Part shown: piece by piece, positions 11,962 to 27,357 of the stretch | Numbering within the stretch: position 1 is the stretch's first letter | How the letters are laid out: every line of letters starts with the position of its first letter | Notes under the pieces: model-generated | What the model was told of the DNA's origin: nothing | Seen by the model: only the letters and a program-made list of their open reading frames with translations | Databases searched by the model: none | NCBI GenBank assembly: GCA_016191105.1 | Contig: JACPPH010000002.1 | Location: 67,268 to 131,267, forward strand | DNA length: 64,000 nt | Direction: 5' to 3' | Source: Candidatus Saccharimonadota bacterium | GTDB taxonomy: Bacteria > Patescibacteriota > Saccharimonadia > CAILAD01 > BJGX01 | Program-made: the position numbers and the translations under genes

Positions 11962-11971
11962 ATGCGGTAGG

Positions 11972-11992
11972 GCGGGGGCTTTTGACCCCCGC
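11972..11992. terminator. bidirectional rho-independent terminator GCGGGGG-cttttga-CCCCCGC
   Basis: 7-bp GC stem immediately after the cysS stop, between convergent genes. Confidence 0.7.
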
Positions 11993-12009
11993 TTGTTCCT
12001 ACAGATTGC

Positions 12010-12675
12010 TTACAGGAATTCGACCTCTTTGCGGGCTTGATCGAGCGCGTTTTGGGCACGCACGCGTCCGGCCACAAAGTGCTTGGGCACCTTGCCGCCA
12101 GCCCAGAAGAAGTTCCAGGCGTACTCGCTGGGGTTGACCCACAGCAGCCGCACTGCGTGGCAGTGCTTGCCGTAAGCCACGCCACGATTGTAGTCGACGC
12201 CGGTTTTGACGTAGCCGACACCACAGAGAGCACGGTGACTGCCCTGGTTGACTAGGTCGGCACCGCTGTCGATGGCCACCAGGCCGAGCACGTCGACCGC
12301 ATAGAGGCAACGAGCACGGTGGATGGCACTGGCAATGCCCTTGCCCCACATGCCGCTGTCCCACAGCACGACGCCGCTGATGCCACGGTAGCTGCTGATG
12401 TTCTCGATGCCACTGGCGCCGATGAGGCGACCGCGACTGTCGGATCCGGGCTTGAACTCATAGATGCCCCAGCCCTGAGAATCAGGATCATCGTAGCGAG
12501 CCTTGAGCCAATCCAGCTCTTGCTGGTGGTTTTGAGCACCGCGCAAACTGAGATGGGCGCAGACTTCGTAGCGAGCCAACGGTTCGGGCACGGCTGCCAT
12601 TTCGCTTTCCAAGATGGGCTGCATGCGGATCACCAGCCCATCGGTGGTTTTGGTTTGCATAGGGAAGCCAAACAT
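12010..12675 (-). CDS. GNAT family N-acetyltransferase (RimJ/RimL-like), high-GC
   Basis: Motif A-like 'VNQGSHRALCGVGY'. About 62% GC. The frame was chosen among several overlapping shadow ORFs by the GNAT motifs. Confidence 0.6.
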   Translation of the reverse strand: MFGFPMQTKTTDGLVIRMQPILESEMAAVPEPLARYEVCAHLSLRGAQNHQQELDWLKARYDDPDSQGWGIYEFKPGSDSRGRLIGASGIENISSYRGISGVVLWDSGMWGKGIASAIHRARCLYAVDVLGLVAIDSGADLVNQGSHRALCGVGYVKTGVDYNRGVAYGKHCHAVRLLWVNPSEYAWNFFWAGGKVPKHFVAGRVRAQNALDQARKEVEFL

Positions 12676-13111
12676 GGCCTTTCCTTTCTGTAGGGAACGA
12701 ACCTCGACAACATTGTCGAGGGAGCCTTGATAATTCCAAGACTACTGTTGAGCGGATTTTGGGATTTCCAAAATCCGATAAGCCTCCAAGAATGGGTTAC
12801 AACCAGATTGTAAATTTAGCGTTTTAACCAAAAAGCCTCCATTTCGGAGGCTCATCGCATCTGAGAAATTAGTTCAATTTATGAGTTCAGTACACGATAA
12901 GCCATAGCGACACAAAGCTCGCCTTTATAATCCATAAAGGTGGGAGCGGAAATATTTGTGGTTGTATGACTATATCGGTTCATAGCGAAAGTAATAATAA
13001 CACCAACGCTTATGCTTTGTCAACAAAAATTGACAATAAAATGCAGGCGAGCCCCTCAACTCCAGCGTTAACTGGTGTCGAGGGGCTCTGGATGCGGCGG
13101 TTTGGGCAGTG

Positions 13112-13363
13112 CTAGTGAGGGCGGCGCTCTCCCTTGCCGCCTTCAAGGCACTTCCTGCAGACCTGGATCTTCTTGTTGCCAGGCTTGTACACCCATGTGG
13201 TGTAGCGGTGCTCGCTCTCGCGGCAAAGCGGCAACTTGGAGTTGTTGAGGATTTCAGCTGCAGCCAAGGTGGCTCCTTGGGGTAGGGCGCTCGAGTTGGC
13301 GCCAATGGGTGGGTGCGACAAGCGAAAACCAGGGGTCTTCGCAAGATCGCAGCCAGTATACAA
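13112..13363 (-). CDS. hypothetical small Cys/His-containing protein (high-GC)
   Basis: 83 aa with 'LCRESEHRYTTWVYKPGNKKIQVCRKCLEGG'. A long hairpin (13049..13088) lies downstream. Confidence 0.35.
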   Translation of the reverse strand: MYTGCDLAKTPGFRLSHPPIGANSSALPQGATLAAAEILNNSKLPLCRESEHRYTTWVYKPGNKKIQVCRKCLEGGKGERRPH

Positions 13364-13426
13364 TTTTAACCAAATTATATCAATAAGATTTTGCGTAAAC
13401 CCCTTAAGTTTCGGTACAATATGGTT

Positions 13427-14659
13427 ATGCTACAAGTAACCGAGTTCGATAACCACCAACTAGCTGATTACGAGGCCGACACCGACCCGATTGAGATAGA
13501 TAGGCTCAAGAGCATTGCCAAAACCCTAGAGGGTAAGAAGATTTATGAGATCAATGCCACCGCTATTGGCGGCGGGGTGGCTGAACTTTTGCATAGCCAG
13601 ATACCATTGTTTAGAGATCTCGGCTTATATGCCGACTGGCTAGTTCTACCTAGCAATAATCACTTCTTTACTATTACCAAAAACCTCCATAATTGTTTGC
13701 AAGGACACTGTGCGTTGCCAAACCAGTTCGAACTCGAGCATTACAGCAAGTATCTGCAAGAGGCAGCTGTCGATATTCCGCAAGACGGGGATCTGTATAT
13801 ACTGCATGATCCCCAGACACTCGGGCTGGCTCCGTATCTTAAAAACCACAAGCTAATCTGGCGCTGCCATATTGACCTAACCATGGCTGACCCCCATGTT
13901 CTTGCCTGGGTCCAAGACTACTACCAGTATTTTAGTAAGGTTGTATTTTCGCTCGAGGCATATGTATCGGGTTTGGAGCGCAAAAAAGTGGCCATTGTAC
14001 ACCCAGCAATCGACCCTTTGAGCGACAAAAACCGCCAGCTCAGTCAACGCGAAATAGATACCTACCTAGGCAAATATGAACTCGATATTACCAAGCCGTA
14101 CTTATTGCAGGTTTCGCGCTTCGACAGGTTTAAAAATCCTATTGGTGCTATAGAGATTTTCGCTGAGACCCGCAAATTAATTCCTAGCCTGCAGTGTGTG
14201 TTAATGGGTGATTACGCCACCGACGACCCAGAGGGGAAGCCGTACTTCGAAGAGGTACGCCAAATTGCTCGCGAGGCTGATCACGGCAACATCCATATAA
14301 TTACCCAAAAAGACGATCTGGCGGTCAATGCTCTGCAGCGCGGAGCAGCTGCGGTGTTGCAAAACTCTACCCAGGAGGGTTTTGGGCTAAGCGTAACCGA
14401 GGCTTTGTGGAAAGGCAAGTTTGTGTTTGCCAGACCAGTGGGGGGCATAGCCTTGCAAGTTATAAACGGCAAAACCGGCTTTTACCTAGCCGACAATAAC
14501 CATGATTCGGCCGAGAGTATCGCCAAGGTACTCAAAAACTCGCGCGACTACTTGCATGTCGAAGCCGATGCCAAAGAACAAGTTCGCCGCAAATTCTTGC
14601 TGCCCAAAATGGCCAATGACTATCTGCATGTCTATGCCGAAGCGCTCAAGCAGACTTAA
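13427..14659 (+). CDS. trehalose synthase TreT-like GT4 glycosyltransferase
   Basis: 'EINATAIGGGVAELLHSQIPLFRDLGLYADW' matches the TreT N-terminus, with a GT4 C-terminal domain. Leaderless: TACAAT at 13415-13420, then 6 nt, then the ATG at 13427. Confidence 0.7.
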   Translation: MLQVTEFDNHQLADYEADTDPIEIDRLKSIAKTLEGKKIYEINATAIGGGVAELLHSQIPLFRDLGLYADWLVLPSNNHFFTITKNLHNCLQGHCALPNQFELEHYSKYLQEAAVDIPQDGDLYILHDPQTLGLAPYLKNHKLIWRCHIDLTMADPHVLAWVQDYYQYFSKVVFSLEAYVSGLERKKVAIVHPAIDPLSDKNRQLSQREIDTYLGKYELDITKPYLLQVSRFDRFKNPIGAIEIFAETRKLIPSLQCVLMGDYATDDPEGKPYFEEVRQIAREADHGNIHIITQKDDLAVNALQRGAAAVLQNSTQEGFGLSVTEALWKGKFVFARPVGGIALQVINGKTGFYLADNNHDSAESIAKVLKNSRDYLHVEADAKEQVRRKFLLPKMANDYLHVYAEALKQT

Positions 14660-15096
14660 ATATTTTCAACTCGGTTGTGTTTGCGAAGTTTAATCAGCTC
14701 TTGTTCGACCTGTCGCAAGTTCGGTGGTTGCTCCTTTAGCGCCTCGAGATTTGGGCCTTTTTTGGATAAACTGATTATATGCATGCCCACCGGGGCGCCA
14801 AAGGTTAACCAAAACCACGAGAATATAAAGTTGTGGCGGTAAACCCGACCCAAGCGTGAGGCCACTGCGAACGAGTATATGCTGCCGGCATAGGGTATAA
14901 GCGCCATAAAGAACCAGCGCTTGGGCAAGTTTAGCGTCTTGATGAGGTAGTAGTAGTTATAGATCGGTACAAAGGCTCTCCAGCCGCGGGCCTGTAGCTG
15001 CCCGAGCACCCTCGATAGTCCCACCATGTAAACCAGATAAAGCACAACTAGCACTACGATAACCACGTAGCCCAAACTTAAGACGGCTTGAATCAT
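14656..15096 (-). CDS. DUF5684-like small membrane protein
   Basis: Signature 'GWRAFVPIYNYYYLIK' plus three TM helices. Confidence 0.5.
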   Translation of the reverse strand: MIQAVLSLGYVVIVVLVVLYLVYMVGLSRVLGQLQARGWRAFVPIYNYYYLIKTLNLPKRWFFMALIPYAGSIYSFAVASRLGRVYRHNFIFSWFWLTFGAPVGMHIISLSKKGPNLEALKEQPPNLRQVEQELIKLRKHNRVENI

Positions 15097-15193
15097 ATAG
15101 CTATGATAGCACGGTGAGGCTTTTACATTCTTAAGAAAGTCATAAGGTGTTAAACCGGGCAGGCCGACCGCAAAAAAACTTTCTAAAATTGTA

Positions 15194-15222
15194 TTGACAA
15201 TATCCAGTACCTGTGGTATAAT
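15194..15222 (+). promoter_or_regulatory. consensus sigma-70 promoter TTGACA-N17-TGgTATAAT
   Basis: Perfect -35 box, 17-nt spacer, and an extended perfect -10 box. The next + strand CDS is 565 nt downstream. Confidence 0.65.
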
Positions 15223-15673
15223 TCAACTATCATTATTTTTGAGCTACTGGACTCCCAAATAGTGCTCAAGCTACAACTAAATACACCGCCACCCCGACAC
15301 AAGGGTCCGAACTGTTAACTAATAGCCGGCAAGACATATGAGCTTACCGCTATCACTTTCGCGAGGTTATCGCTTTAAAACAACAAAACCGGGCCTTTAT
15401 GTGGGGATGGTGTTTTGCCTATAAATGAAGCCAAAGATCTAGTAACTTTTTCGTCATTTATAAGCAAAATAGCTTTTTTTGAAAAAAGTTGGCCAAATGT
15501 TGTTGACATCAGTTATGCTTATGTTATTATCAGAAGCACTATGTTAATCAACACAGTCAAGTTAATTACTCGCACTCGAGCAAAAACAGCGCCCACTTTT
15601 GGCGCGCTTAGCGCTACCCGTGTGCCCGGACTGAGTCGTTTTATTTCATAAACTTTAGAGAAATCATTCGCTA

Positions 15674-15702
15674 GAAGCTCGGGACCACACTCTCGAGCTT
15701 CT
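15674..15702 (+). terminator. hairpin AGAAGCTCG-N11-CGAGCTTCT followed by TTAGTT (attenuator or terminator) in the ABC-exporter leader
   Basis: 9-bp perfect stem, seen directly. Confidence 0.5.
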
Positions 15703-15786
15703 TTAGTTACGGCAACCCGTAGCTAGAAGCACCAATCACATCACGATCTTTCACAACCAAACCTACGACCCCTATAAGGAGGAAGA

Positions 15787-17568
15787 ATGGGAGTCAAAAT
15801 GATGCTGCAGATGTATCGTCTGCTGCTGGCTAAGCCAGAAGTACGAGCCAAATATCGTGCTATGCGCCAAAGCATTGTCAAGGCGCTAGCACTGGTGTTT
15901 GTGGTCGAGGCGCTGTCGGTGGCCGAGGTGTATCCGCTGCGGGGTATTTTTGACGGCATGTCTGTTAAGGCTCCTGCCAGCACCCTGGTGATCTGGGTGA
16001 TTGCCATGTTTGGCATTCGCCAGGTTCACACCGTGCTCGACCAGCACAAGGAGTATCACCAGATGACAACCGACTGGCAAAACCTGGGCAACATTCTTGG
16101 TCATGGTCACGAGCACCAGCTCAGCCAGGATCAAAAGTACCAGATCGATCATTCCACCGGAGAGAAGGAGTCCACGCTTTCAAAGAACATTTGGAAGATG
16201 GAAAACCTCATCGACGTAGTGATCTACCAGGTTACGCCCATGATCATCATGATCGGGTTCATCCTGGCGGCGCTGTCGATATTCGACTGGCGCTACAGTG
16301 CTATCACCGTCGTGACCATCGCCATCTACTGCCTGGTTACCAGGCACTTCGAGAAGGTGTTTGCTCCCAAGCGCATAGAAGAGCATGAGGAATGGAAGGC
16401 AATTGAACGGATGGCCAGCGAGCAGGTTAAGGGCTGGCGGACAATCAAGTCCAATGGCCTGGAGCTACAAAAGGCTCGCGAGCTCCAGTGTGCAATCGAG
16501 AAGTTCATGCAGGCCAACGCCAAACGCCGACGGATTCGCATTCGCCACTGGGTGGTACAGAACTCGGTGTTGAGCGTTTCGATCCTGTTTATCTGGGGGT
16601 TTTCCCTCTGGCTGTACAGCATCGACGCCATGAGTACCGGCGTGTTGGTGATCATCAATGGCTGGATAGCCAAGCTTTACAGCCACATGTTCCGCTATGC
16701 CAACTTTCAACGCGAGGCCTACGAAGGCGTGGCCAGTCTCAACGACATGGTTGAGTTGCTCTCTAGTAGCTCGGCTATCGACGGTATGCCGAATGCACTA
16801 CAACTGCCCGCCTCTGGCCTTGGCTGCGAGGTTGTGCTCGACGGTGTGGGCTTTCGCTACCACGACGACGGTGAGTACGCGCTACGCGACATAACCGCCA
16901 AGCTGCCAGCAGGCAGCACGGTGGCGATTATGGCGCCATCGGGTGGAGGCAAATCAACTCTGGCCGATCTGTTGATAAGGGCATACGACACCTGCGAGGG
17001 ATCCATTTACCTCGACGGTGTTGACCTGCGCGACATAGACCGCCAACACCTCATGCAGGTGGTTGCGGCCACAGTGCTGCAAGATGCCAATCTCTTCGAC
17101 GGCACCATTGCCAGCAACATCGGCTTTGGCTGCTTGCGCGAACTGAGCCAAGCAGAGGTAGAGGTAGCCGCAAAGCAGGCCTACGCCCACCAGTTCATCA
17201 TGGAGTTTCCTGAGGGATACGACACGATGGTGGGTGAGGACGGCGTGCGGCTCAGCGGCGGGGAAAGGCAAAGGATCGCCATTGCGCGAGCCCTTGCCAA
17301 GCAACCGCAGCTGCTGATCATGGACGAGGCCACTAGTGCTCTCGATGAACCGAGCCAACGCATGGTGAACCTCTCTATCCAGGCTAAGTCAGCTGAGCGG
17401 AGCTGCACCATTGTGCTGATAGCCCATCGGTTTAGTACGGTCGAACACGCCGACTTAGTGTTGGTGCTCGACCATGGCAAGCTGGTGGACTTGGGTACCA
17501 TTGCTGAGCTTGGTGAGCGCTGCGAGCTGTTTCGACGGCTCAGGAGCGGCGAGATCAGCATGGAGTAG
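15787..17568 (+). CDS. ABC exporter, fused permease/ATP-binding protein (type I, MsbA-like), moderately high-GC
   Basis: N-terminal TM domain. Walker A 'APSGGGKSTL', signature 'LSGGERQRIAIARAL', Walker B 'LLIMDEATSALD'. RBS AGGAGG. Confidence 0.88.
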   Translation: MGVKMMLQMYRLLLAKPEVRAKYRAMRQSIVKALALVFVVEALSVAEVYPLRGIFDGMSVKAPASTLVIWVIAMFGIRQVHTVLDQHKEYHQMTTDWQNLGNILGHGHEHQLSQDQKYQIDHSTGEKESTLSKNIWKMENLIDVVIYQVTPMIIMIGFILAALSIFDWRYSAITVVTIAIYCLVTRHFEKVFAPKRIEEHEEWKAIERMASEQVKGWRTIKSNGLELQKARELQCAIEKFMQANAKRRRIRIRHWVVQNSVLSVSILFIWGFSLWLYSIDAMSTGVLVIINGWIAKLYSHMFRYANFQREAYEGVASLNDMVELLSSSSAIDGMPNALQLPASGLGCEVVLDGVGFRYHDDGEYALRDITAKLPAGSTVAIMAPSGGGKSTLADLLIRAYDTCEGSIYLDGVDLRDIDRQHLMQVVAATVLQDANLFDGTIASNIGFGCLRELSQAEVEVAAKQAYAHQFIMEFPEGYDTMVGEDGVRLSGGERQRIAIARALAKQPQLLIMDEATSALDEPSQRMVNLSIQAKSAERSCTIVLIAHRFSTVEHADLVLVLDHGKLVDLGTIAELGERCELFRRLRSGEISME

Positions 17569-17585
17569 GCAAGTGAGTGATGTGA

Positions 17586-17624
17586 GACCCCGGCAATTCG
17601 CGAAAGCGGATCCGGGGTTTTCAC
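17586..17624 (+). terminator. rho-independent terminator CCCCGG..CCGGGG-TTTTCACTTT
   Basis: GC stem plus a T-tract just after the ABC exporter stop. Confidence 0.75.
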
Positions 17625-17746
17625 TTTGTAAAAAAACTTTTCTGGCAGTTGCTACCTGCAGAATCTTGAAAAATGCAGCGTTTTCGGCTATGATTATCAG
17701 GTTAAATTGCGTAACTGCAGCTTAAAACCCAGTTTTAGCTCGACGA

Positions 17747-17821
17747 TGGGGCGTAGCCAAGTGGTAAGGCACCGGTTTTTGGTACCGGCATTCGCAGGTT
17801 CGATCCCTGCCGCCCCAGCCA
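17747..17821 (+). tRNA. tRNA-Gln (anticodon UUG)
   Basis: Cloverleaf with a 7-bp acceptor stem UGGGGCG/CGCCCCA and a U1:A72 pair typical of bacterial tRNA-Gln. D-loop 'AGTGGTAA', anticodon loop 'tt-TTG-gt', T-arm 'GGTTCGATCC', encoded CCA. Very similar to E. coli tRNA-Gln. Confidence 0.9.
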
Positions 17822-17859
17822 GCGAAAAGTGCCCGAGCTTGTCTCGGGTGTTTTTCGCT
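17821..17859 (+). terminator. nested hairpin AGCGAAAA/TTTTCGCT around CCCGAG/CTCGGG with a T-tract
   Basis: Seen directly, immediately after the tRNA. Confidence 0.7.
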
Positions 17860-17967
17860 GGCGTGTGTGATATCGAACCGTAGAGCGTAGCGGAAGGTTC
17901 GGCGTAGCGAAATCCACGCACAGAAATATATTTCGAGCATGAATGAGTGAAGAAGGCGAGAGCCGCC

Positions 17968-17985
17968 TCCCTGCCGCCCCAGCCA
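17968..17985 (+). repeat. 18-bp perfect direct repeat of the tRNA-Gln 3' end (TCCCTGCCGCCCCAGCCA), att-like
   Basis: Identical to 17804..17821, 164 bp downstream, and followed by an A-tract/GACCC..GGGTC/T-tract hairpin. Confidence 0.8.
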
Positions 17986-18179
17986 TAGTGCCTATGCTCA
18001 AAATGACCCATTTGGGTCTTTTTTGATATTTACTCGCCAGGTGTGGCGATAGGCAGATCGGCAAATGGGCTAGAAACCAAGCAGAGTTACTAAGCAATCG
18101 CCCACGACAAGTCGAAATTAAGGCTTAAGAAAACTGGCTAGCTCCAGCAAAAATTAATCTTATATGTTACAATCTGACT

Positions 18180-18518
18180 ATGATTTCCGGGGTAAAAAGT
18201 AAGTTATTTACAACCTTGGTTACCATAGCGTTGCTGCTTGGTGGTTTAGCGATATTAAATTTCTACTCAATGTCAATGCAGCCCACCAGCGAACATTTCG
18301 ACTACAACACAACCTGTAAAATTGCTTGCTTTGGCCAGGCTATTGGTAATCTTGGTGCCGCTCCTACTAATCCTGAAAGTTTGGTACTAGTTTTATCGTT
18401 TGCAGGGCTGGTGGCTGGGTTTGCTGTCGGTACAACTAACACCGGGGTCTTTAACAAGGCCTTTCGTTATAGCCTAGGGCCGCCGCTCTACAAACGCTTT
18501 GAGTCTTATCGTGATTAA
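18180..18518 (+). CDS. hypothetical small membrane protein
   Basis: Two TM helices. Leaderless: TGtTACAAT at 18165-18173, then 6 nt, then the ATG. Confidence 0.4.
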   Translation: MISGVKSKLFTTLVTIALLLGGLAILNFYSMSMQPTSEHFDYNTTCKIACFGQAIGNLGAAPTNPESLVLVLSFAGLVAGFAVGTTNTGVFNKAFRYSLGPPLYKRFESYRD

Positions 18519-18564
18519 AAAAATCTCTTGTAGTAGAAAGTACTTTACAAATTAAGGAGATAAT

Positions 18565-19101
18565 ATGAAATCTAAAATATGGCCTGTAGTGATAGGCTTA
18601 AGCGTGCTCGCGGTTGCGCTGTTTATCGGATTCGCTATTACTCGCCCCGATGTACCGCCAGGGCAGGCAAAGACCTCAAACACCACAAATAAATCAACTG
18701 ACTCCAATATAGTCTCGAACAGTGAGATCCATTGGCACCCAAAATTAGCGGTATATATTAACGGACAAAAACAAGAGATTCCAGCCGAAACAGGAATTGG
18801 TCAGCAGTATGCCAAAAGCCGTTGGTATGATTCTATGATGCAAATGGCGAACATACATACTCACGACAATAGTGGTCAATTGCATTGGGAAGTAATGGAG
18901 GGCCCGGTTCGAAAAGACCAAGTTCGTTTGAGTGCGTTTTTTGACGTTTGGGACAAGAAGTTCAGCAAAATCCAGGTGTTCGACAAGACCGACCCTAAAG
19001 GGTCAAAAATCACCATGACTGTTAATGGCCAGCCTAACAGTGAATTCGAAAACTACATGGTGGCCGACAATGATCAGATTGAAATAAAGTATCAAGATTA
19101 A
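18565..19101 (+). CDS. membrane-anchored secreted protein with His motifs (HWH, HTHD)
   Basis: N-terminal TM/signal region, RBS AAGGAG, His-rich motifs. It sits at the head of the metal-homeostasis cluster. Confidence 0.45.
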   Translation: MKSKIWPVVIGLSVLAVALFIGFAITRPDVPPGQAKTSNTTNKSTDSNIVSNSEIHWHPKLAVYINGQKQEIPAETGIGQQYAKSRWYDSMMQMANIHTHDNSGQLHWEVMEGPVRKDQVRLSAFFDVWDKKFSKIQVFDKTDPKGSKITMTVNGQPNSEFENYMVADNDQIEIKYQD

Positions 19102-19111
19102 CAGGGAGATA

Positions 19112-19546
19112 ATGATGAAGCAGGAATCAATACTATATGGTGTGATTGGCTTACTAGTGGGTGTACTGTTGGCTATGTTTGTGTCAGCCATTGTTGCTAA
19201 TTCACAAAACCAAACAATGATGCGAGCGATGTGCATGAACACGGGCAACGGAATGAATGGCTCGTCGATGAGCATGGAGAATATGACGAACCAGCTCAAA
19301 GCCAAGTCTGGTAGTGAGTTTGAGAGGGCCTTCTTAGAACAAATGACTGTACACCACCAAGGGGCTATTGGTATGGCTAACCTGGTCTTACAAAAGTCCA
19401 CAAGACCGGAGTTGCGCAAACTTGCCGAAGACATCGTTGCTGCTCAGACCAAAGAAATCAACCAAATGAAAGAGTGGCAAACACAGTGGAGCTATGCAAC
19501 TAGTTCTAGCTCAAATAGTAGTAATATGGGTGGAATGGCTAATTAA
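19112..19546 (+). CDS. DUF305 family protein (often associated with metal resistance)
   Basis: 'VHHQGAIGMA..LRKLAEDIVAAQTKEINQM' is the DUF305 signature. N-terminal TM helix. Confidence 0.65.
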   Translation: MMKQESILYGVIGLLVGVLLAMFVSAIVANSQNQTMMRAMCMNTGNGMNGSSMSMENMTNQLKAKSGSEFERAFLEQMTVHHQGAIGMANLVLQKSTRPELRKLAEDIVAAQTKEINQMKEWQTQWSYATSSSSNSSNMGGMAN

Positions 19547-19637
19547 GTAAAAGTTTGCAGCTTTGTTGCCAACACAACTGAGCACTAACAGGTTAGCTGC
19601 TAGTTATAACGCCGATGCACAAGGCGGGGCTTGATTA

Positions 19638-19654
19638 ATACCCCTCAGGGGTAT
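19638..19654. promoter_or_regulatory. candidate CsoR/RcnR-type operator ATACCCC-tca-GGGGTAT overlapping the -10 region of the repressor gene
   Basis: Perfect 7-bp-arm palindrome with C/G tracts directly abutting the TACAAT -10 box (19654-19659). The ATG is at 19669. Confidence 0.6.
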
Positions 19655-19668
19655 ACAATAAAATCAAT

Positions 19669-19953
19669 ATGAATGCTGATATAAAAAAGCGCTATGTCCA
19701 TCGCACGAGGATTATCGAGGGTCAAATCCAAGGCCTACAAAAAATGATAGACAGTGAAGCCTATTGTATGGATGTATTGACGCAGAGCTTGGCTATTCAA
19801 CGGTCGCTCGCATCATTAAACAAGCTAGTGCTCGAGAACCATTTACGCACTCACATTACAGATATGTTTGGGGCCGGCGATAGCAAAGCCCAAAAAAAAG
19901 CGGTTGCTGAGCTGCTAAGCCTATACGAACTTAACAACATTCGGGGTAAGTAA
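19669..19953 (+). CDS. CsoR/RcnR/FrmR-family metal-sensing transcriptional repressor
   Basis: 94 aa. X-Y-Z residues C33, H58 and H62 with RcnR-like 25/4 spacing. Confidence 0.8.
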   Translation: MNADIKKRYVHRTRIIEGQIQGLQKMIDSEAYCMDVLTQSLAIQRSLASLNKLVLENHLRTHITDMFGAGDSKAQKKAVAELLSLYELNNIRGK

Positions 19954-20231
19954 TGTTAGGCAAGCGTTTGCGGGAGTTTATGCGGTGTCATCAGGGCAAA
20001 GTTAACCTATTGCTACATGTTGTTGGTTATTCTCTGGTTGGTGTTGGTATTTGGCAGAAGAGTTTCTGGTATGTGATTGCGGGTGCGATAGTTCAAGAGC
20101 TTGGTCATTTTTATCAGTACGTCAAGACCAAAAACTACAAAGACAGCCCACTTTATTGTCTAAGATCGCAGGTATTATTTGCGCTGCCGGCTTTAAGCTT
20201 AATACTTATTTACATTTGGATAGCACGGTAA
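19953..20231 (+). CDS. hypothetical small membrane protein co-encoded with the repressor
   Basis: 92 aa with 2-3 TM helices. Its start overlaps the repressor stop. Confidence 0.4.
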   Translation: MLGKRLREFMRCHQGKVNLLLHVVGYSLVGVGIWQKSFWYVIAGAIVQELGHFYQYVKTKNYKDSPLYCLRSQVLFALPALSLILIYIWIAR

Positions 20232-20376
20232 GTTGCCAAAAATGACTATAGCCAACCCCGTTCATCACGGCAGCCAACAAGATAGCGCTAAACATGCTGG
20301 CCGCCTAATAGCTATGTTTAGCAATAAGTTTTAGGAAGGTATTAACCAACAATTTAAGTCACAAAGATTAACAATA

Positions 20377-22533
20377 ATGGAGTCAAAAATGTCTAAACAT
20401 CAAATCAATTCTAATAACGAAGCCATGCAAGGCATGACAGAATCAGAACATCATATGCATCACATGTCTGAGGGAAACATGACACGGTGGCAGAAATTTA
20501 AAATGAGTATGACTATGACCATGGGTATGGATCATAGCGGACTGGCCGGCCGCGAAATGGCCAAAATGATGGAAATAGACATTCGCAATAAATTCTTTTT
20601 TGCTCTAATACTATCTGTGCCGATCATTGCTTATTCGCCACTCGGAACTAGCATTCTAAAGTTGAGCTTGCCCCAGCCGATCCCGGCAGCTTGGATACTG
20701 TTGATTCTTACGACACCGGTATTCTTCTATGCCGGCTGGATATTTTTGTACTCTAGCTATCATGCGCTAAAAGCCAGGACACTCAATATGGCTGTTTTGA
20801 TTGCGGTTGGTATATCGGCGGCGTATTTTGCAAGTATTTTGCTGACCTTGGTAGGCAGTTCGGAATCGTATTATGAGGCTGCTGCTCTGTTGATTACTTT
20901 CGTGTTGTTTGGTCACTGGATGGAAATGAAGTCTCGGCGCGGAACAACCGATGCCTTACAGGCTCTGTTTGATCTGGTGCCACCTCAGGCCCGGCTAATA
21001 CGGGGCAATAAAGAGGTTATGGTATCGACCAGCGAGGTGCGAGTTGGCGACATCTTGGTATTAAAACCGGGCGACAAAGTTCCGGTTGACGGCGAAGTGA
21101 TAAGTGGTCAAACGTCTATCGATGAAGCCCTTGTAACGGGCGAGTCGCTACCTGTTAGTAAACAAAAGGGTGACCCCGTAACCGGCGGATCTATCAATCA
21201 ATCTGGAACCGTCCGAATCAAGGCTACCAAGGTAGGATCAGATACGGTTTTGGCTCAAATTGTTAAAATGGTTGAAAACGCCCAAAACTCCAAGGCGCCT
21301 GGCCAGCGCCTGGCCGATAAATTTGCCGGCTATTTAGTAATCTTGGCCATATCGGCTGGGTTGCTAACCTTTGCGGCTTGGGCTGTGTTTTCTAATCAGG
21401 GTTGGCTATTTGCACTAACCCTAGCAATATCGGCTGTGGTAATAGCCTGCCCCGATGCACTTGGCCTAGCCACGCCCACCGCCGTAGCCGTGGGCACTGG
21501 TTTGGGTGCCAAACATAACATTCTTATAAAAGATGCTGCTACGCTTGAGCAAACTGCCAAGATCCAAGCCGTTGTACTCGACAAAACTGGCACTCTCACC
21601 GAAGGCAATCCCCAGGTTACCGATGTAGTAAGCGTGGCTGGTTTCAAAAAAGACCATCTTATAGAATTGGTTGCCGCCGCCGAGGCTGGCTCTAGCCACC
21701 CCTTGGCGCAAACCATCATCAACGAAGCTCATAAGCGCCGCCTTAAGTTGGTGGCCGTCAAGCGGTTTAATAATATTGCTGGGCTTGGTGTGGAAGCGGT
21801 GGTAGAAGGTAAGCGAGTACTGGTAGGAACCGAGCGGCTTATGAAAAATCGCAAGCTCTCAACTAAAGCCATTCAGGCCGACATCGACAGGTTGCTAGCA
21901 GAGGGCAAGACCCTCATGATTATTGCCATTAACGACAAGGTATCTGGTGTTATAGCGGCCTCGGACAAGATTAAGCCGACCGCCCAAAATGCCATTACCG
22001 CTATGCAGCAACTTGGTTTAGAGATTGTTATGATTACTGGTGATAATCAGAAGACCGCAGACATCGTTGCTAAGCAACTAGGTATTAAGCGTTATTTTGC
22101 CGAGGTCTTGCCTGCCCAAAAAGAAAGTTATGTAAAAAAACTTCAAAGCGAAGGCCGGTTTACGGCTATGGTTGGAGATGGGGTTAACGATGCGCCGGCG
22201 TTAGCCCAAGCCGATATTGGTATTGCTATCGGGGCGGGTACAGATGTGGCTATAGCAACAGCAAAAATTGTTTTAATGAAGTCTGATCCGACCGATATCA
22301 TAAGGGCTATTCGTTTGAGCAAAGCCACTATTCGTAAAATGAAGCAAAATTTAGGCTGGGCGAGTGTCTATAACATTGCTGCCATTCCTATTGCTGCCGG
22401 AGTATTATATCCAGCTTATGGCGTTTATCTTAGACCAGAGTTCGCGGCGCTTCTAATGTCGGTTTCGTCAATTTTTGTGGCCGTGAATGCGGTTATGCTA
22501 AAACGGGCCGAAAAGCAGCTGTTAACGGTGTAG
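20377..22533 (+). CDS. heavy-metal-translocating P1B-type ATPase (CopB-like) with an atypical CPD TM6 motif
   Basis: 'DKTGTLT', 'GDGVNDAPAL', TM7 'YN....P', TM8 'MSVSS.....N'. Met/His-rich N-terminus (HHMHHM, MSMTMTMGM) with no CxxC HMA domain. TM6 reads 'CPDALGLATPTA' (tgc ccc gat). Confidence 0.88.
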   Translation: MESKMSKHQINSNNEAMQGMTESEHHMHHMSEGNMTRWQKFKMSMTMTMGMDHSGLAGREMAKMMEIDIRNKFFFALILSVPIIAYSPLGTSILKLSLPQPIPAAWILLILTTPVFFYAGWIFLYSSYHALKARTLNMAVLIAVGISAAYFASILLTLVGSSESYYEAAALLITFVLFGHWMEMKSRRGTTDALQALFDLVPPQARLIRGNKEVMVSTSEVRVGDILVLKPGDKVPVDGEVISGQTSIDEALVTGESLPVSKQKGDPVTGGSINQSGTVRIKATKVGSDTVLAQIVKMVENAQNSKAPGQRLADKFAGYLVILAISAGLLTFAAWAVFSNQGWLFALTLAISAVVIACPDALGLATPTAVAVGTGLGAKHNILIKDAATLEQTAKIQAVVLDKTGTLTEGNPQVTDVVSVAGFKKDHLIELVAAAEAGSSHPLAQTIINEAHKRRLKLVAVKRFNNIAGLGVEAVVEGKRVLVGTERLMKNRKLSTKAIQADIDRLLAEGKTLMIIAINDKVSGVIAASDKIKPTAQNAITAMQQLGLEIVMITGDNQKTADIVAKQLGIKRYFAEVLPAQKESYVKKLQSEGRFTAMVGDGVNDAPALAQADIGIAIGAGTDVAIATAKIVLMKSDPTDIIRAIRLSKATIRKMKQNLGWASVYNIAAIPIAAGVLYPAYGVYLRPEFAALLMSVSSIFVAVNAVMLKRAEKQLLTV

Positions 22534-22675
22534 ATCGACTATTGGTAAGCGCCCTAGCTTAAGTAGTGTATCGCAACTTACGGCCAGATTTTTAGAGGAG
22601 TGCTTACCGATAGCTAACGATTGTGGTAGTAGCCAATGCCTAGGTGTTTTGTAAAACTAAGTTATAATTGTGGTT

Positions 22676-23551
22676 ATGCATAGCCACGACCGCCAGGCCT
22701 CAAGGTCTTTTAAGTTTGTAATTGGATTTATATTAAACACTGGCTTTACGGTGTTGGAGTTTGTTGTCGGCATAATGGCTGGCAGTTTGGCTCTTGTTTC
22801 AGATGCCTCGCACAATTTAACCGACTCGCTGAGTATAGCCATTGCCTTTGGTGGCGAGCGAGTGTCTAGTCGTCAGGCCAATGATAGCAAGAGTTATGGC
22901 TTTGGCCGGGTTTCGATTGTCACAGCTCTTATAAATGGCGTATTGCTATTCGCGGTGGCTGCCTATATTTTTTACGAAGCTTATTTACGAATCTTGAACC
23001 CCGAACCGGTCAAAGGGGGTTTAGTTGCAATTGTGGCCTTGGCTGGCATTCTTATAAATGGTGTAGTGGCTTTGCTGTTTTACAAAGACAAAGACGACCT
23101 CAATGTTAAAAGTACCTTCTTAAATATGGCCTTTGATACGCTTAGCTCGGTCGGCGCAATGATTGCTGGTCTTATTATACTCGTAACCGGCAATACGCTG
23201 GTCGATCCAATAATTGGCATCCTAATTGGCTGTATGCTTGTTTTTAGTGCCTATGGCGTGGTTCGGGATGCTTTACACATATTGTTAGAGGGTACCCCCA
23301 AAGATATCGATAGTTCTGAAATTGCTAATTTTATCTTGTCGTTCCCGCATGTCAAAGGAGTAGACGATCTACATATATGGTCGATCTCGTCGCATTATCT
23401 AGCTATGAGTTGCCATATTGTTATTGAAGAGGAAAATTTGCAGAGTAGCGTTGACCAAGTTAAGGCTATTAAAAAACAACTGCTAGGCAAATATCAAATC
23501 CAGCACGCCACGATTGAGACCGAGCTTAAGCATTGCGAGCCAAAGCACTAG
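22676..23551 (+). CDS. cation diffusion facilitator (CDF) family transporter
   Basis: TM1-2 'SLALVSDASHNLTDS' and the C-terminal cytoplasmic domain. Leaderless: TATAAT at 22663-22668, then 7 nt, then the ATG at 22676. Confidence 0.85.
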   Translation: MHSHDRQASRSFKFVIGFILNTGFTVLEFVVGIMAGSLALVSDASHNLTDSLSIAIAFGGERVSSRQANDSKSYGFGRVSIVTALINGVLLFAVAAYIFYEAYLRILNPEPVKGGLVAIVALAGILINGVVALLFYKDKDDLNVKSTFLNMAFDTLSSVGAMIAGLIILVTGNTLVDPIIGILIGCMLVFSAYGVVRDALHILLEGTPKDIDSSEIANFILSFPHVKGVDDLHIWSISSHYLAMSCHIVIEEENLQSSVDQVKAIKKQLLGKYQIQHATIETELKHCEPKH

Positions 23552-23647
23552 TTGGTCTGTTGGGGTAGCTATACGCCGAACCGGGGCTTGGGCGTATGGC
23601 TAATAAGTTATGGTCTAGCTCACAACGCTCAGCCGGTATACTTATAT

Positions 23648-23677
23648 CAAAAAAAGACCCAAGCAGGTCTTTTTTTG
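23648..23677. terminator. bidirectional terminator A7-AGACC-caagca-GGTCT-T7
   Basis: Seen directly between convergent genes. Confidence 0.75.
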
Positions 23678-23689
23678 AGTAATTTGAAC

Positions 23690-24307
23690 TTACTTATTTT
23701 TGCGTAGAGAACGGAGTTTGAGTGTAAGCCCTGTTAGGGCGCCGCCAGCCAACGCCACCGAAAGAGTGTCGGCTCCTCCGCCGGTGGTAGGTAGAGCAGG
23801 TGTGCTAAGAGCTACCGTGGGAGTTACGGGTGCTGGGGGTGGAGTTGGTTTGCATTCTGCGCCGCCATGGCTCGAAGACACAAACTGACCTGCAGTGTAG
23901 TCGTTGGTATTGCCACTTGGCCCAAATGGGCTTAAGCCGCGCAGCAAATCGATCTGGTAAAAGCACTGGGGCTTTTTGACTGTTAGACTACTAAAACCAG
24001 CTGGAAATGTTCCGCTTTTGGAATCTACAAACTTTTGCTGATCAAATGGCTTGCCGTCAACGCCATTGGGCGCGTCCCAGGCGGCTACAGTCACATCTTT
24101 AGTGCAAGCAGTGCTGTCGACTGTATTCTTTACCTCGAAGGTAGCGGTAACAGTATCGGCACCAACCGAATAGCTTCTGGCAAAAACTTCACATTTGTTA
24201 TTTGGTTGATCTGCAGCTTTGGCTACATTACCTGCATGAAAGCCAACCCCAACAACTGCGGCTGCAATTGTCAGGACTCCATAATTAACTATTTTACGAA
24301 CATTCAT
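23690..24307 (-). CDS. LPxTG-anchored cell-surface protein (sortase substrate)
   Basis: N-terminal signal peptide. C-terminal 'LPTTG', then a hydrophobic stretch, then 'KLRSLRKNK'. Pro/Ala/Thr-rich stalk. Confidence 0.75.
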   Translation of the reverse strand: MNVRKIVNYGVLTIAAAVVGVGFHAGNVAKAADQPNNKCEVFARSYSVGADTVTATFEVKNTVDSTACTKDVTVAAWDAPNGVDGKPFDQQKFVDSKSGTFPAGFSSLTVKKPQCFYQIDLLRGLSPFGPSGNTNDYTAGQFVSSSHGGAECKPTPPPAPVTPTVALSTPALPTTGGGADTLSVALAGGALTGLTLKLRSLRKNK

Positions 24308-24485
24308 ATAAGCTGTCCTTTCTTGTGCTAGCTGTATAATGTTGAGTGGAGTCTATCATATATTAATACAGATGTCAATAGCAATTTGCTTATGTTTATC
24401 TGGGCAGACCCAATTGGTGTATAATTAGGGCAGTTCTAACCTGGAACAACGCCCAACTAATTATAATTTCAATTAAGGAGAGAAC

Positions 24486-24986
24486 ATGTCGGAACTTCCA
24501 ATACGGCCAGAATCGACTCCGCCGAAGGCAGAGACTGGGCGGAAAGATGTAATAGTTAAACACTTATCTGGAAATGAAGATTTGACACAAGCTTTTGATG
24601 TTCGACGCACAGTTTTTCACGATGAACAGGGGATCTCTGAAGAAGACGATTTTGATGGCCTAGATATACAGGCAGACCACTTTATTGCTTTCGATGGAGA
24701 TAAGCCTGTTGGAACGGCACGTGTAAGATATATAGACGGGAAAGCGAAAGTTGAACGGGTTGCCGTTCTAAAGCCGTCTAGGGGTAAAGGTGTTGGCGAG
24801 GAGATGATGCGTGATATTTTGGATTTCATTGCCAAAAATGGAATAAATGAAGTTTACCTAGATTCGCAGACAAGTGCATCTCGCCTATATGAGAAAGTAG
24901 GGTTTGTTAAAGAGGGCGAAGAATTCGAAGAGGTTGGCATTCCGCATGTCAAAATGGTAGCTAAGCTTGATGAAAAAAGTAGTTAA
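24486..24986 (+). CDS. GNAT family N-acetyltransferase
   Basis: Motif A 'RGKGVGEEMM'. RBS AAGGAG. Confidence 0.8.
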   Translation: MSELPIRPESTPPKAETGRKDVIVKHLSGNEDLTQAFDVRRTVFHDEQGISEEDDFDGLDIQADHFIAFDGDKPVGTARVRYIDGKAKVERVAVLKPSRGKGVGEEMMRDILDFIAKNGINEVYLDSQTSASRLYEKVGFVKEGEEFEEVGIPHVKMVAKLDEKSS

Positions 24987-25407
24987 AACTGCCTCGGTAA
25001 TGATTTTAAATAACCACAAGATCCTACTCCTTTTAAGAGATGATAGGCCCGATTTGGTTAATCCCAACACCTGGTGTCTAATTGGGGGCTATGTAGAGAA
25101 CAAGGAAAGCGAAAAGGCTGCCGCACACCGTGAGGCCAAAGAAGAAACAGGACTGAGCTTAGATCGGCTCGACTATATAGGTACTCACGAATATACGAAA
25201 GGCTATACTACGGCCACCTTTTTATCAGTTGTTAGTGATTTACTGGCTAAAGAAGCGAAGCTCGGAGATGAGGGTCAAGAAATCCGCTTTTTCAGCTTTG
25301 ACGAGTTGTCTAAGGTCCCTTTGAGCGGCTCTATAAGAAAGTATTATAATGACTATCAAGAGGAGCTTAAGAGTTTAATGGAGACTGAAGAACCAAAACG
25401 GTTCTAA
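24967..25407 (+). CDS. NUDIX hydrolase
   Basis: Nudix box 'GGYVENKESEKAAAHREAKEETGL'. Confidence 0.85.
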   Translation: MMKKVVKTASVMILNNHKILLLLRDDRPDLVNPNTWCLIGGYVENKESEKAAAHREAKEETGLSLDRLDYIGTHEYTKGYTTATFLSVVSDLLAKEAKLGDEGQEIRFFSFDELSKVPLSGSIRKYYNDYQEELKSLMETEEPKRF

Positions 25408-25439
25408 CCCAGGGTGCAACGCCCAGCCAGGAAATTATT

Positions 25440-26030
25440 ATGAACACCGAGATAGAAGCAACATTTCTTGAAATAGATCATGACAAAATCAGACGTAAAC
25501 TCAAAGATCTAAACGCAAAGTTGATTAGTCCAGAGGTACTCACGCGGCGTACAATCTACGACTATGATGATTTGCGACTTGATAAAAAAGCAGCATGGAT
25601 TCGTATTCGGGACAACGGCGAGAAGATCACCATGGGCTTTAAGCAGAGGCAGACAGAAACAATAGAGGGAATGAAAGAAGTCGAGTTTGAGGTGTCTAGC
25701 TACGACGCTGCAAGAAAGTTTATGGAGTCGATTGGGCTGACCGTAAAAGCCGTGCAGGAATCTAAGCGAGAAATTTGGCAGTATGGTGATTGCGAAATTA
25801 TGCTAGATACTTGGCCATGGATTCCTCCATATGTGGAGGTAGAAGGCCCAAGTGAAGAAGCTGTTAAAGATTGCTCTAAGGATCTAGGCCTAAATTGGAA
25901 CCAAGCTATGTTCGATAGCACAGATGCTATTTACATGAAGTACTACAATGTTACAAGAACCGAGATTTCAACTATTCCAATAAAGTTTGGTGATTTGCCT
26001 AAGAGTATGAGGGCCAAAGAAATTTCTTAA
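25440..26030 (+). CDS. CYTH-domain protein (CyaB-like class IV adenylyl cyclase / triphosphate tunnel metalloenzyme)
   Basis: N-terminal 'TEIEATFLEIDHDKI' is the ExExK-type motif. Confidence 0.65.
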   Translation: MNTEIEATFLEIDHDKIRRKLKDLNAKLISPEVLTRRTIYDYDDLRLDKKAAWIRIRDNGEKITMGFKQRQTETIEGMKEVEFEVSSYDAARKFMESIGLTVKAVQESKREIWQYGDCEIMLDTWPWIPPYVEVEGPSEEAVKDCSKDLGLNWNQAMFDSTDAIYMKYYNVTRTEISTIPIKFGDLPKSMRAKEIS

Positions 26031-26044
26031 ACAATAATAAATTG

Positions 26045-26938
26045 ATGAAAAAAACAGTCAATCACAAAGCGCCGTTTGATCTGCGCAATCAAAACAGCTT
26101 TTTTGGCAGCTGGCCTGTAATTGACGACACAGATCAAAACTACGCTATTGCAATTGCTTTTCCAGTCGAGGGCTGGCAGGAGTCGGCTTGTGTCGTTGTG
26201 TCTCAAAACCAAGTTGGTGAACTGACCGCTGAAGCCAATGTCGTAAAAGATTCAAAACGAGCAATCGACCAAGCCCTAGCCACACTGTCGTTAGATGTTG
26301 ACGATACAGGTTGGGAGGGGGTCGGGCAGGCAGACAGAGTAATTGGTGAGCTGCAACACAAGTACAGCTATTTACGACCGGTGCTGTTTCACTCGCCATA
26401 CGAGGCTGCAGCTGGGTTTGTAATCGGGCAACGAATATCCGTTAAGCAGCGCCAAGCAATTCAGCAAAGGTTAGCCGAAGAGCTAGGCGATGAAATCGAA
26501 GTTGAGGGTAAGAAATACCACGCGTTTCCGCAACCACAGAAGTTATTGGAGGTAACTGAACACAAGGGTCTAAACGAAACTAAGCTAGAGCGTCTAAAAG
26601 GTGTTGCCCAGGCAGCGCTCGATGGTACGTTAACACGCGAACACTTGTTGGGCGTGAGCCCAGAGAAGGTACTCGAAAAGCTACAGGCCTTGCCTGGCAT
26701 TGGTCCATTTTATGCCAGCGGGATACTTTATCGTGGTGCCGGGGTTGTCGATGATATAACCGACGACAAGTTGACCAAGTATGTTATTAAAAAGGCCTAC
26801 AGGCTCGATAGCGAACCAAACCAAAAAGAGGCTTTGCAAATTGCCGAAAAGTGGAAGCCATATAGAATGTGGTGCGAAGTTTTATTGCATGTATGGTTGC
26901 GCCGCGAAGTTGGCATGCCTAAAATGGGGGAACGATGA
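26045..26938 (+). CDS. HhH-GPD DNA glycosylase (AlkA-like DNA-3-methyladenine glycosylase II)
   Basis: HhH 'LPGIGPFYASGI' followed by the catalytic 'GAGVVDD'. Confidence 0.7.
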   Translation: MKKTVNHKAPFDLRNQNSFFGSWPVIDDTDQNYAIAIAFPVEGWQESACVVVSQNQVGELTAEANVVKDSKRAIDQALATLSLDVDDTGWEGVGQADRVIGELQHKYSYLRPVLFHSPYEAAAGFVIGQRISVKQRQAIQQRLAEELGDEIEVEGKKYHAFPQPQKLLEVTEHKGLNETKLERLKGVAQAALDGTLTREHLLGVSPEKVLEKLQALPGIGPFYASGILYRGAGVVDDITDDKLTKYVIKKAYRLDSEPNQKEALQIAEKWKPYRMWCEVLLHVWLRREVGMPKMGER

Positions 26939-27357
26939 AAGTTTCGAATGATTTTAAAATGGTGATTGTGCTCGACGACGATTTGTCGTTGGGGCTTAAA
27001 ACCAACACAGCGGCAGTACTATCGCTCACCTTGGGCAGCAAGGTCGAGGGTTTAATTGGGCACGACCTGCACGACAAAGCTGGCAATAAACACACCAGCC
27101 TCACCAGGATTCCAGTGCCAATTCTAAGGTGTAGCCCAGAACAGCTAAAACAAACTTACGATCAGGCCTACGAACTAGATGGCGAGCTGCTGTTGGTTGA
27201 TATTACCGATGCTGCTCAAACCACCACAAATTACCAAGACTACCAGCAAAAACTAGAATTAACTGAGCCGAAAGATCTTAAATTGTTAGGAATTGCATTG
27301 GCAGGCTCCAAGAGTCTAGTAAACAAGCTGACCGGCAACATGGGCCTGGTTCGCTAG
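26935..27357 (+). CDS. hypothetical protein (possibly DUF2000-like)
   Basis: 140 aa, translationally coupled between the glycosylase and the ATL gene. Confidence 0.35.
   Translation: MKVSNDFKMVIVLDDDLSLGLKTNTAAVLSLTLGSKVEGLIGHDLHDKAGNKHTSLTRIPVPILRCSPEQLKQTYDQAYELDGELLLVDITDAAQTTTNYQDYQQKLELTEPKDLKLLGIALAGSKSLVNKLTGNMGLVR

Follow-up and report, generated by a model that had tools for sequence, protein, structure and literature searches.

A probable copper-efflux cluster with a CsoR-type operator and a CPD-subtype P1B-ATPase downstream of tRNA-Gln in a Saccharibacteria genome

We examined a 64,000-nt stretch of a Candidatus Saccharimonadota genome (contig JACPPH010000002.1; hereafter the window, whose full-length numbering is used for its positions), in which seven genes at 18180-23551 follow a tRNA-Gln gene. 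These genes probably comprise a copper-efflux operon controlled by a CsoR-family repressor, together with surface copper-binding proteins and an independent cation diffusion facilitator (CDF) transporter, located in a flexible part of the genome downstream of the tRNA. The original prediction, made from the sequence alone, had read them as a metal-homeostasis island. That observation was confirmed and its interpretation is supported; it is correct and largely ordinary.

Gene content of the cluster

As predicted, all seven open reading frames (ORFs) are contiguous on the + strand, and annotation with hidden Markov models from Pfam and NCBIfam upheld every proposed domain assignment (DUF305, PF02583, E1-E2 ATPase, and CDF). 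The features of the cluster are as follows.

18180-18518, +, 112-aa protein with a CKIAC (CxxxC) motif and two hydrophobic segments; ORF of no known family
18565-19101, +, 178-aa membrane-anchored extracytoplasmic protein; ORF, homologue alignment
19112-19546, +, DUF305 (CopM-like) protein of 144 aa, single repeat, membrane-anchored; PF03713
19631-19659, +, promoter-like site enclosing the CsoR operator; promoter scan
19669-19953, +, CsoR/RcnR-family repressor of 94 aa; PF02583
19953-20231, +, 92-aa hydrophobic ORF; ORF list, orphan
20377-22533, +, copper-type P1B-ATPase of the CPD subtype, 718 aa (likely start about 20389); TIGR01511
22670-23551, +, CDF transporter of the Zn-CDF clade, 293 aa (likely start about 22676); PF01545, PF16916, TIGR01297

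The likely starts are those used on an identical contig of the same population (L001, 100% protein identity, which begins inside tRNA-Gln), where the ATPase starts 4 codons later (714 aa) and the CDF transporter 2 codons later (291 aa). The 112-, 178-, and 92-aa proteins matched no Pfam or NCBIfam family above threshold in searches carried up to E=10. Two of them, of 112 and 92 aa, had been called membrane proteins; the former has two hydrophobic segments and the latter is hydrophobic, an orphan, and a gene only putatively. An NCBI protein with 100% identity carries a locus tag of the HYX70_ series and is labelled as coming from a Candidatus Saccharibacteria metagenome-assembled genome.

The repressor and its operator

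The repressor matched PF02583 with 78.5 bits (cut-off 22.8; E=5.3e-22). Its best NCBIfam match was RicR, and its best matches in the PDB were the CsoR proteins of S. lividans, M. tuberculosis, Geobacillus, and T. thermophilus. In the PDB alignments, C33, H58, and H62 fall on the Cu(I) ligand positions of the CsoR structures. The resulting sensor triad, x-C-H-H, is the same as that of T. thermophilus CsoR (3aai), which is a validated repressor of copZ-csoR-copA (PMC10318464). Among csoR homologues that lie beside genes of the 178-aa family (metagenome loci L027-L097), 8 have His and 3 have Cys at the third sensor position, and thus C-H-H may be the common form in candidate-phyla bacteria.

A palindrome, ATACCCCTCAGGGGTAT, is located at 19638-19654, 15 nt before the csoR ATG, and sits between the -35 (TTGATT) and -10 (TACAAT) elements of the promoter-like site. 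It occurs once in the window. All 17 of its nucleotides match positions 3-19 of ATATACCCCTNAGGGGTATAT, the published consensus of streptomycete type 2 CsoR (PMC3902906). The form TACCCC-N3-GGGGTA is found directly upstream of csoR homologues in two other loci (L004 and L096), and it is also present in L029, L052, L070, and L097, where csoR-like ORFs overlap or adjoin the palindrome. As direct sequence evidence, the operator points to autoregulated CsoR-type control, and it argues for copper over Ni or Co. Since the C-H-H triad is combined with a 17/17 operator match inside a promoter-like site, the system is probably copper-responsive. The repressor had been predicted to be of RcnR/CsoR type. 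The family assignment holds, the CsoR-type operator and the copper-type pump make copper sensing most likely, and an RcnR-like sensor is improbable.

The ATG of the 92-aa ORF overlaps the csoR stop codon (TAATG). Among 5.8 billion proteins its sole match was itself. Against Pfam it gave a weak Mpo1-like match to PF06127 (E=0.063).

A copper-type pump of the CPD subtype

The ATPase contains the E1-E2_ATPase and Hydrolase domains and the DKTGT phosphorylation site. It scored 596 bits against the copper-translocating model TIGR01511 (cut-off 397) and 616 bits against TIGR01525, and its closest PDB structures are A. fulgidus CopA (3j08, E=3e-161) and Legionella CopA. At the transmembrane site, ACPDALGLATP aligned to ACPCAFGLATP of 3j08, so that CPD takes the place of CPC. 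The copper-type motifs YNIAAIP (YN(x)4P) and MSVSS (MxxSS) are retained, and the HEGxT and SPC motifs of Co/Zn pumps are absent. The Met/His-rich N-terminus that had been predicted is present: the first 75 residues include 15 Met and 6 His and lack Cys. No HMA domain was detected in the ATPase, and no HMA- or CopZ-like motif was found in any ORF of the window.

The pump therefore differs from P1B-1 CopA proteins, which combine CPC with an N-terminal CxxC HMA domain. It also differs from P1B-3 CopB proteins (CPH, MSxST, and a His-rich N-terminus) in having CPD, MSVSS, and a Met-rich N-terminus with 6 His; the pumps of neighbouring lineages in L002, L004, and L006 do fit CopB. By its motifs, it would belong to a subtype with CPD, YN(x)4P, MSxSS, and no CxxC domain, and this CPD/YN/MSGSS subtype has been recorded only in silico, in three Rhizobiales genomes (PMC5552934). 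We searched 1.84 billion cluster representatives exhaustively for relatives. The five closest motif-bearing representatives (P0067, P0068, P0070, P0075, and P0097; 51-61% identity) are also CPD proteins with MSxSS, while 132 of the best 150 matches have CPC and 6 have CPH, and thus the CPD pumps would form a small clade beside CopA. Further CPD pumps adjoin genes of the 178-aa family in metagenome loci L043, L069, L082, and L085. A look-up of the exact ATPase sequence returned no record. The ATPase is likely to represent a rare, uncharacterised copper-type subtype.

On this basis we propose that apo-CsoR (C33/H58/H62) would bind the single G-tract palindrome, and since this palindrome takes up the promoter spacer of csoR, binding would block transcription. 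Cytoplasmic Cu(I) would then bind CsoR and release it from the DNA, so that csoR and the translationally coupled 92-aa ORF are derepressed. By read-through, the same event might derepress the CPD-type ATPase, which would expel cytoplasmic copper. Met-rich tails favour Cu(I), and in a pump without CopZ or an HMA domain the Met/His-rich N-terminal tail is the likely site of copper capture. The CDF transporter would probably be expressed independently of CsoR. The genes of a complete sensor with two efflux systems, as originally predicted, are all in place; their wiring was overstated, as the sole CsoR operator in the window precedes csoR. Control of the ATPase would depend on read-through, and control of the CDF gene by CsoR is unsupported.

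The CDF transporter

The CDF transporter contains the PF01545 Cation_efflux and PF16916 ZT_dimer domains and scored 255 bits against TIGR01297 (cut-off 82). The ZitB model gave 198 bits, under its 408-bit cut-off, and the DmeF model also matched. When aligned to ZnT8, the transmembrane helix 2 (TM2) motif HNLTD keeps H-x3-D, and NMAFD in TM5 gives N-x3-D where ZnT8 has H. The orthologue in L002 shares this H-D/N-D site. Because the site is atypical, the substrate is uncertain. From its sequence, the transporter would export a divalent cation, probably Zn(II), with Mn, Cd, or Co remaining candidates.

The three surface proteins

The 112-, 178-, and 144-aa proteins encoded upstream of csoR each have a hydrophobic segment near the N-terminus. 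The hydrophobic segments of the 112-aa protein lie at 7-32 and 65-87, and in L002, L003, and L006 the genes for its homologues (40-50% identity) directly precede that for the 178-aa homologue. The 144-aa protein matched DUF305 (PF03713, 125.9 bits, E=1.8e-36). It scored 73 bits against the CopM model NF049983, below the 90-bit cut-off, and among proteins of solved structure its closest relative is Synechocystis CopM (5fej, E=1.1e-29), to either half of which its single repeat can be aligned. Residues 29-62 form a Met-rich linker (8 Met/34). CopM, a resistance protein of periplasmic/extracellular location, binds copper (PMC4335983).

For the 178-aa protein, 66 homologues are indexed, and every one with a named source comes from Patescibacteria (Saccharibacteria, Doudnabacteria, or 'Patescibacteria group'); at least 373 more relatives were found in JGI metagenomes. 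In an alignment of 21 homologues, H56, H58, P59, H98, T99, H100, H107, and E109 are invariant, in the motifs HWHP, HTH, and H-x-E. The predicted histidine motifs HWH and HTHD are indeed present, at 56-58 and 98-101, and their histidines are among the invariant residues. An AlphaFold2 model (mean predicted local distance difference test score 85.8; 10-residue block means of 94-98 from about residue 50) predicts an N-terminal helix anchor and a beta-grasp-like domain. Judged from these sequences, the 178-aa protein is the founder of what appears to be a previously unannotated family. The neighbours of the gene were examined in 28 metagenome loci at least 6 kb long; within 10 kb, a P1B-ATPase is encoded in 14, CsoR in 8, and DUF305 in 5. 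Such linkage to copper genes would be far above chance for genomes of roughly 1 Mb. No relatives of the family were found on IMG/VR viral contigs, which gives no support there for a phage-borne module. The most likely role of the three membrane-anchored proteins is to bind copper at the cell surface, or to buffer it there, as it is exported or comes in.

In L002 (7184-7585), L003 (215-616), and L006 (7210-7596), the unit of 112-aa, 178-aa, and DUF305 genes follows a gene for a membrane-anchored cytochrome b5, which is absent from the window. This neighbour hints at redox chemistry that may be tied to the surface unit. In Doudnabacteria (L004 3060-12688, GCA_016182875.1), a gene of the 178-aa family lies inside a larger metal/redox island that also encodes CsoR, DUF305, DUF5676, a CPH pump, DUF3105, ArsR, glutaredoxin, DUF3179, thioredoxin-fold proteins, DsbD, and DsbA.

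An accessory cluster at tRNA-Gln

The cluster was compared with that of a related assembly (L002, GCA_964610335.1, contig CAZSVP010000002.1), whose flanking proteins are 40-57% identical to those of the window. L002 shares with the window the order cysteinyl-tRNA synthetase (CysRS), GNAT, TreT, ABC transporter, and tRNA-Gln. After the tRNA it encodes cytochrome b5, homologues of the 112- and 178-aa proteins, DUF305, two unknown genes, a CPH (CopB-type) pump, and a CDF transporter, and after the latter PAP2, a large serine recombinase, and a terminase. Over 7003 bp, a second locus, L102, matches L002 with 94.7% identity, and this match ends at the last base of tRNA-Gln. Past the tRNA, L102 contains DUF2000 and unrelated genes and no metal cluster. 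L002 and L102 are thus a clean occupied/empty pair. The island had been predicted to be accessory from an att-like footprint at the tRNA. Accessory status is supported by this presence/absence comparison; the footprint argument failed, as both repeat copies are upstream of the cluster and the window has no integrase.

In a blastn comparison of the window with L102, the match across the tRNA runs to 17825 and similarity returns at 26935-27350 (DUF2000). While the predicted span of the genes stands, the segment that varies relative to L102 is larger than was thought, about 9.1 kb (about 17826-26934). Between the window and L002, the CDF transporters are 84% and the DUF305 proteins 65% identical, against 40-57% for CysRS, GNAT, TreT, and the ABC transporter. 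Moreover, contigs of three independent assemblies break inside tRNA-Gln (L001 at its start, L101 at its end at 12838-12909, and L103 at its end), which suggests strain-level heterogeneity or repeats at the site in several populations and is expected if strains differ downstream.

Two side observations concern the relatives. In L002 (13871-16400), the serine recombinase (Resolvase/Recombinase/Zn_ribbon_recom) and the terminase large subunit are encoded 38 nt past PAP2, and a prophage or phage-like element appears to adjoin the metal cluster there. A related recombinase (66.6% nucleotide identity) in L006, at 4758-5960, lies on the other side of a related cluster than in L002, in a different context. 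In L002 (8980-10414) and L006 (8932-10366), genes for a 134-aa and a 350-355-aa protein replace csoR and the 92-aa ORF and are followed by the CPH pump. The 134-aa protein weakly resembles DUF305 (E=0.034), and the 350-355-aa protein is His-rich, membrane-anchored, and of no known family. Comparison of the gene orders points to a cassette swap inside an otherwise conserved cluster, with csoR, the 92-aa ORF, and the CPD pump in the window and the 134-aa gene, the 355-aa gene, and the CPH pump in L002.

The other features around the cluster are listed below.

17747-17821, +, tRNA-Gln (anticodon TTG); ARAGORN, Rfam RF00005 64.7 bits
17804-17821, +, att-like core copy 1, the last 18 nt of the tRNA (TCCCTGCCGCCCCAGCCA); exact repeat
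17968-17985, +, att-like core copy 2, 164 nt downstream; exact repeat
18000-18024, +, terminator-like hairpin GACCC-ATTT-GGGTC with a T run, between repeat copy 2 and the cluster
23650-23675, bidirectional terminator-like hairpin GACCC-AAGCA-GGTC with A and T runs, closing the cluster against the converging 205-aa gene
23690-26938, rest of the segment variable relative to L102, with a 205-aa LPTTG surface protein (-), GNAT, NUDIX, CYTH, and a 298-aa HhH-like gene; Pfam, blastn

The 18-nt repeat is beyond chance (two matches in 0/100 shuffles; 0.02 matches expected per window), and both copies are also present on L001. No third copy was found in the window at up to 3 mismatches. The pair was ruled out as the limits of the island because both copies are upstream of the first gene. 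Copy 2 would be a scar or a left boundary, and the pair would be the scar of another integration/excision event. An inverted repeat at 17818-17862 (20-nt arms, 85% complementary, 5-nt loop) starts inside the CCA end of the tRNA, within the 146-bp segment between the copies, and is probably the tRNA terminator.

The 205-aa protein (23690-24307, - strand) has an N-terminal hydrophobic segment, and its C-terminus consists of LPTTG, a hydrophobic stretch, and the basic tail RSLRKNK, a layout that resembles a cell-wall sorting signal of the sortase type. It had no Pfam match, and its gene converges on the CDF gene.

Foreign origin was also looked for in the base composition, and the test was negative for the cluster. 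The compositional outlier of the region is the ABC transporter gene at 15787-17568 (GC content 0.561 and third-position GC 0.714, against a window GC of 0.475; tetranucleotide z 3.65 for 13001-18000), yet this gene is syntenic in L002, L101, and L102. L101, the closest relative found (ABC transporter 92% identical), has an extra 213-aa gene of no family at 11962-12603, between the ABC transporter and tRNA-Gln, and lacks the GNAT gene after CysRS, so the upstream flank is also somewhat fluid.

A plasmid megablast with the whole region matched the tRNA only. A scan of the genome collection anchored on the upstream ABC transporter, with patterns that were too specific, returned unrelated ABC transporters only, and a metagenome scan with a two-sequence TreT alignment found no relatives. 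L104 and L105 (P0227) and the P0224 contig were rejected as hot-spot comparisons, being distant ABC relatives without synteny; L104 and L105 have no tRNA-Gln, and the P-type ATPases of L104 are not copper-type.

Alternative explanations

Several points weigh against an acquired, CsoR-controlled copper-efflux operon. As to acquisition, the empty site comes from the sister lineage L002/L102 and not from a close relative of the window organism, for which the close relative L101 ends at the tRNA. No integrase, recombinase, or terminase was found in the window. Instead of flanking the cluster, the two repeat copies bracket 146 bp of DNA ahead of the metal genes, and the composition of the cluster is ordinary (GC 0.449 against 0.475, tetranucleotide z about 1.2). 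As to copper, the repressor lacks the canonical CsoR triad x-C-H-C, with H62 replacing the second Cys of S. lividans and M. tuberculosis CsoR, and its C-H-H triad and H-x3-H spacing are also RcnR-like, so that Ni/Co sensing is possible on sequence alone. In the ATPase, CPD replaces the second thiolate, and the transported ion or its oxidation state may differ from that of CopA. As to control, the window scan found no CsoR operator before the ATPase or the CDF gene, co-transcription across the 145-nt gap between the 92-aa ORF and the ATPase is assumed, and the 92-aa ORF, having no homologues, may not be a gene.

We also put forward, tentatively, a bolder reading, which we hold to be somewhat less probable than its opposite. 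The CxxxC-containing 112-aa protein, the 178-aa protein with its His-cluster beta-grasp domain, and the single-repeat DUF305 protein, joined upstream in some lineages by cytochrome b5, might make up an undescribed extracytoplasmic copper system of candidate phyla, with the 178-aa protein as a new metal-binding family. The CPD pump would transport copper by a chemistry other than that of CPC or CPH pumps, for example, with a different oxidation state or ion.

It is improbable that the cluster is ancestral and vertically inherited, with differences between lineages (e.g., L102) reflecting loss and not gain. Vertical descent would agree with the unremarkable composition, with the lack of an integrase in the window and of 178-aa relatives on viral contigs, and with the finding that two lineages of only 40-57% protein identity have the same genes from CysRS to tRNA-Gln and, after them, related metal clusters. 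However, the break between L002 and L102 exactly at the 3' end of the tRNA, with unrelated genes in L102, is a signature of site-specific insertion. The CDF transporter is far better conserved than the flanking proteins, the central cassette differs from that of L002, and a recombinase and terminase adjoin the cluster in L002, with a related recombinase in L006. Most economically, the cluster would have been acquired long ago or within the phylum, arriving by horizontal transfer at an insertion hot spot in tRNA-Gln. Because the window has no recombinase, the cluster is now likely to be immobile.

Similarly unlikely, in our estimate, is that the upstream unit (112 aa, 178 aa, and DUF305) is an extracytoplasmic module for metal acquisition or redox chemistry that merely travels with the efflux genes, e.g., one that supplies copper to a surface enzyme. 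In favour of a separate module, the unit has no CsoR operator ahead of it, a cytochrome b5 gene precedes it in three loci, and half of the long loci of the 178-aa family have no ATPase within 10 kb. On the other hand, CopM-type DUF305 proteins act in copper resistance (PMC4335983), and the association of the 178-aa family with CsoR and P1B pumps would be far above chance in a 1-Mb genome.

Least likely of all, the regulator would be an RcnR/InrS-like Ni/Co or broad-metal sensor and the ATPase-CDF pair would mainly export Ni, Co, or Zn: the H58-x3-H62 spacing, the missing second Cys, weak matches of the regulator to the RcnR and FrmR models of NCBIfam, the harder ligand set of CPD compared with CPC, and the DmeF match of the CDF transporter lean that way, but the best matches of the regulator are CsoR/RicR, its operator fits the CsoR consensus exactly, there is no His near its N-terminus at the RcnR His3 position, the pump keeps the YN and MxxSS motifs without those of Co/Zn pumps, and the Met-rich tails and the CopM-like DUF305 neighbour favour Cu(I). 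A copper-responsive, CsoR-controlled cluster remains the explanation that we prefer.

Comparison with known systems

The architecture is another of the well-known cso-type copper-resistance systems, and as a kind of system it is ordinary. Like the cso operons (csoR-copZ-copA of B. subtilis, S. lividans, and T. thermophilus), it has a CsoR-family gene immediately upstream of a copper-type P1B-ATPase and a G-tract palindrome in the promoter of that gene. The palindrome is identical to the core of the streptomycete consensus, and the C-H-H triad is as in TtCsoR. In M. tuberculosis csoR-Rv0968-ctpV, a small gene reportedly lies between csoR and the pump, as in the window cluster. Unlike the cso operons, the cluster has no CopZ, no HMA domain, and CPD for CPC, and it has an orphan intervening ORF, extra extracytoplasmic genes, and a CDF transporter.

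The pump shares CPD, YN(x)4P, MSxSS, and the lack of a CxxC HMA domain with the Rhizobiales cluster VIc 'P1B-3a' ATPases (PMC5552934). Those are alphaproteobacterial, longer, and have a histidine-poor N-terminus, whereas the window pump has 714-718 aa and a Met/His-rich tail and comes from a candidate-phyla genome. The DUF305 protein shares with CopM of Synechocystis PCC 6803 the DUF305 signature with an HH motif, the richness in Met and His, export, and a copper-resistance locus. In contrast to CopM, it has one repeat and not two, it is membrane-anchored in a host cell that probably lacks an outer membrane, and it is not under a CopRS two-component system. The CDF transporter has the six-helix Cation_efflux domain, the ZT_dimer domain, and the TM2 H-x3-D of Zn-CDFs (CzcD, ZitB, and ZnT8), with N-x3-D for H-x3-D in TM5.

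The location resembles that of tRNA-targeted islands in being directly 3' of a tRNA whose end is duplicated nearby, in the presence/absence polymorphism at the tRNA end in a sister lineage, and in its metal-resistance cargo. It differs from them in that the window lacks an integrase, the cargo lies outside the 146 bp between the two repeat copies, and the composition is not atypical. Moreover, the recombinases of the relatives are of the large serine type, whereas tRNA-targeting islands usually use tyrosine integrases.

A full-text literature search found no paper describing such a system in Saccharibacteria. The less ordinary features are the CPD pump without a chaperone or HMA domain, the His-cluster beta-grasp family tied to copper genes, and the cassette swap between lineages. 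None of these findings overturns current understanding. Candidate-phyla bacteria, Saccharibacteria among them, have very small genomes and spend their lives attached to host bacteria, and an exchangeable accessory copper/zinc defence shows which stresses they must cope with on their own. The tRNA-Gln insertion hot spot is a concrete site at which to track gene flow among these bacteria. The 178-aa family is a conserved, uncharacterised target for copper-binding studies, and a natural CPD variant could inform how the CPx motif sets ion selectivity.

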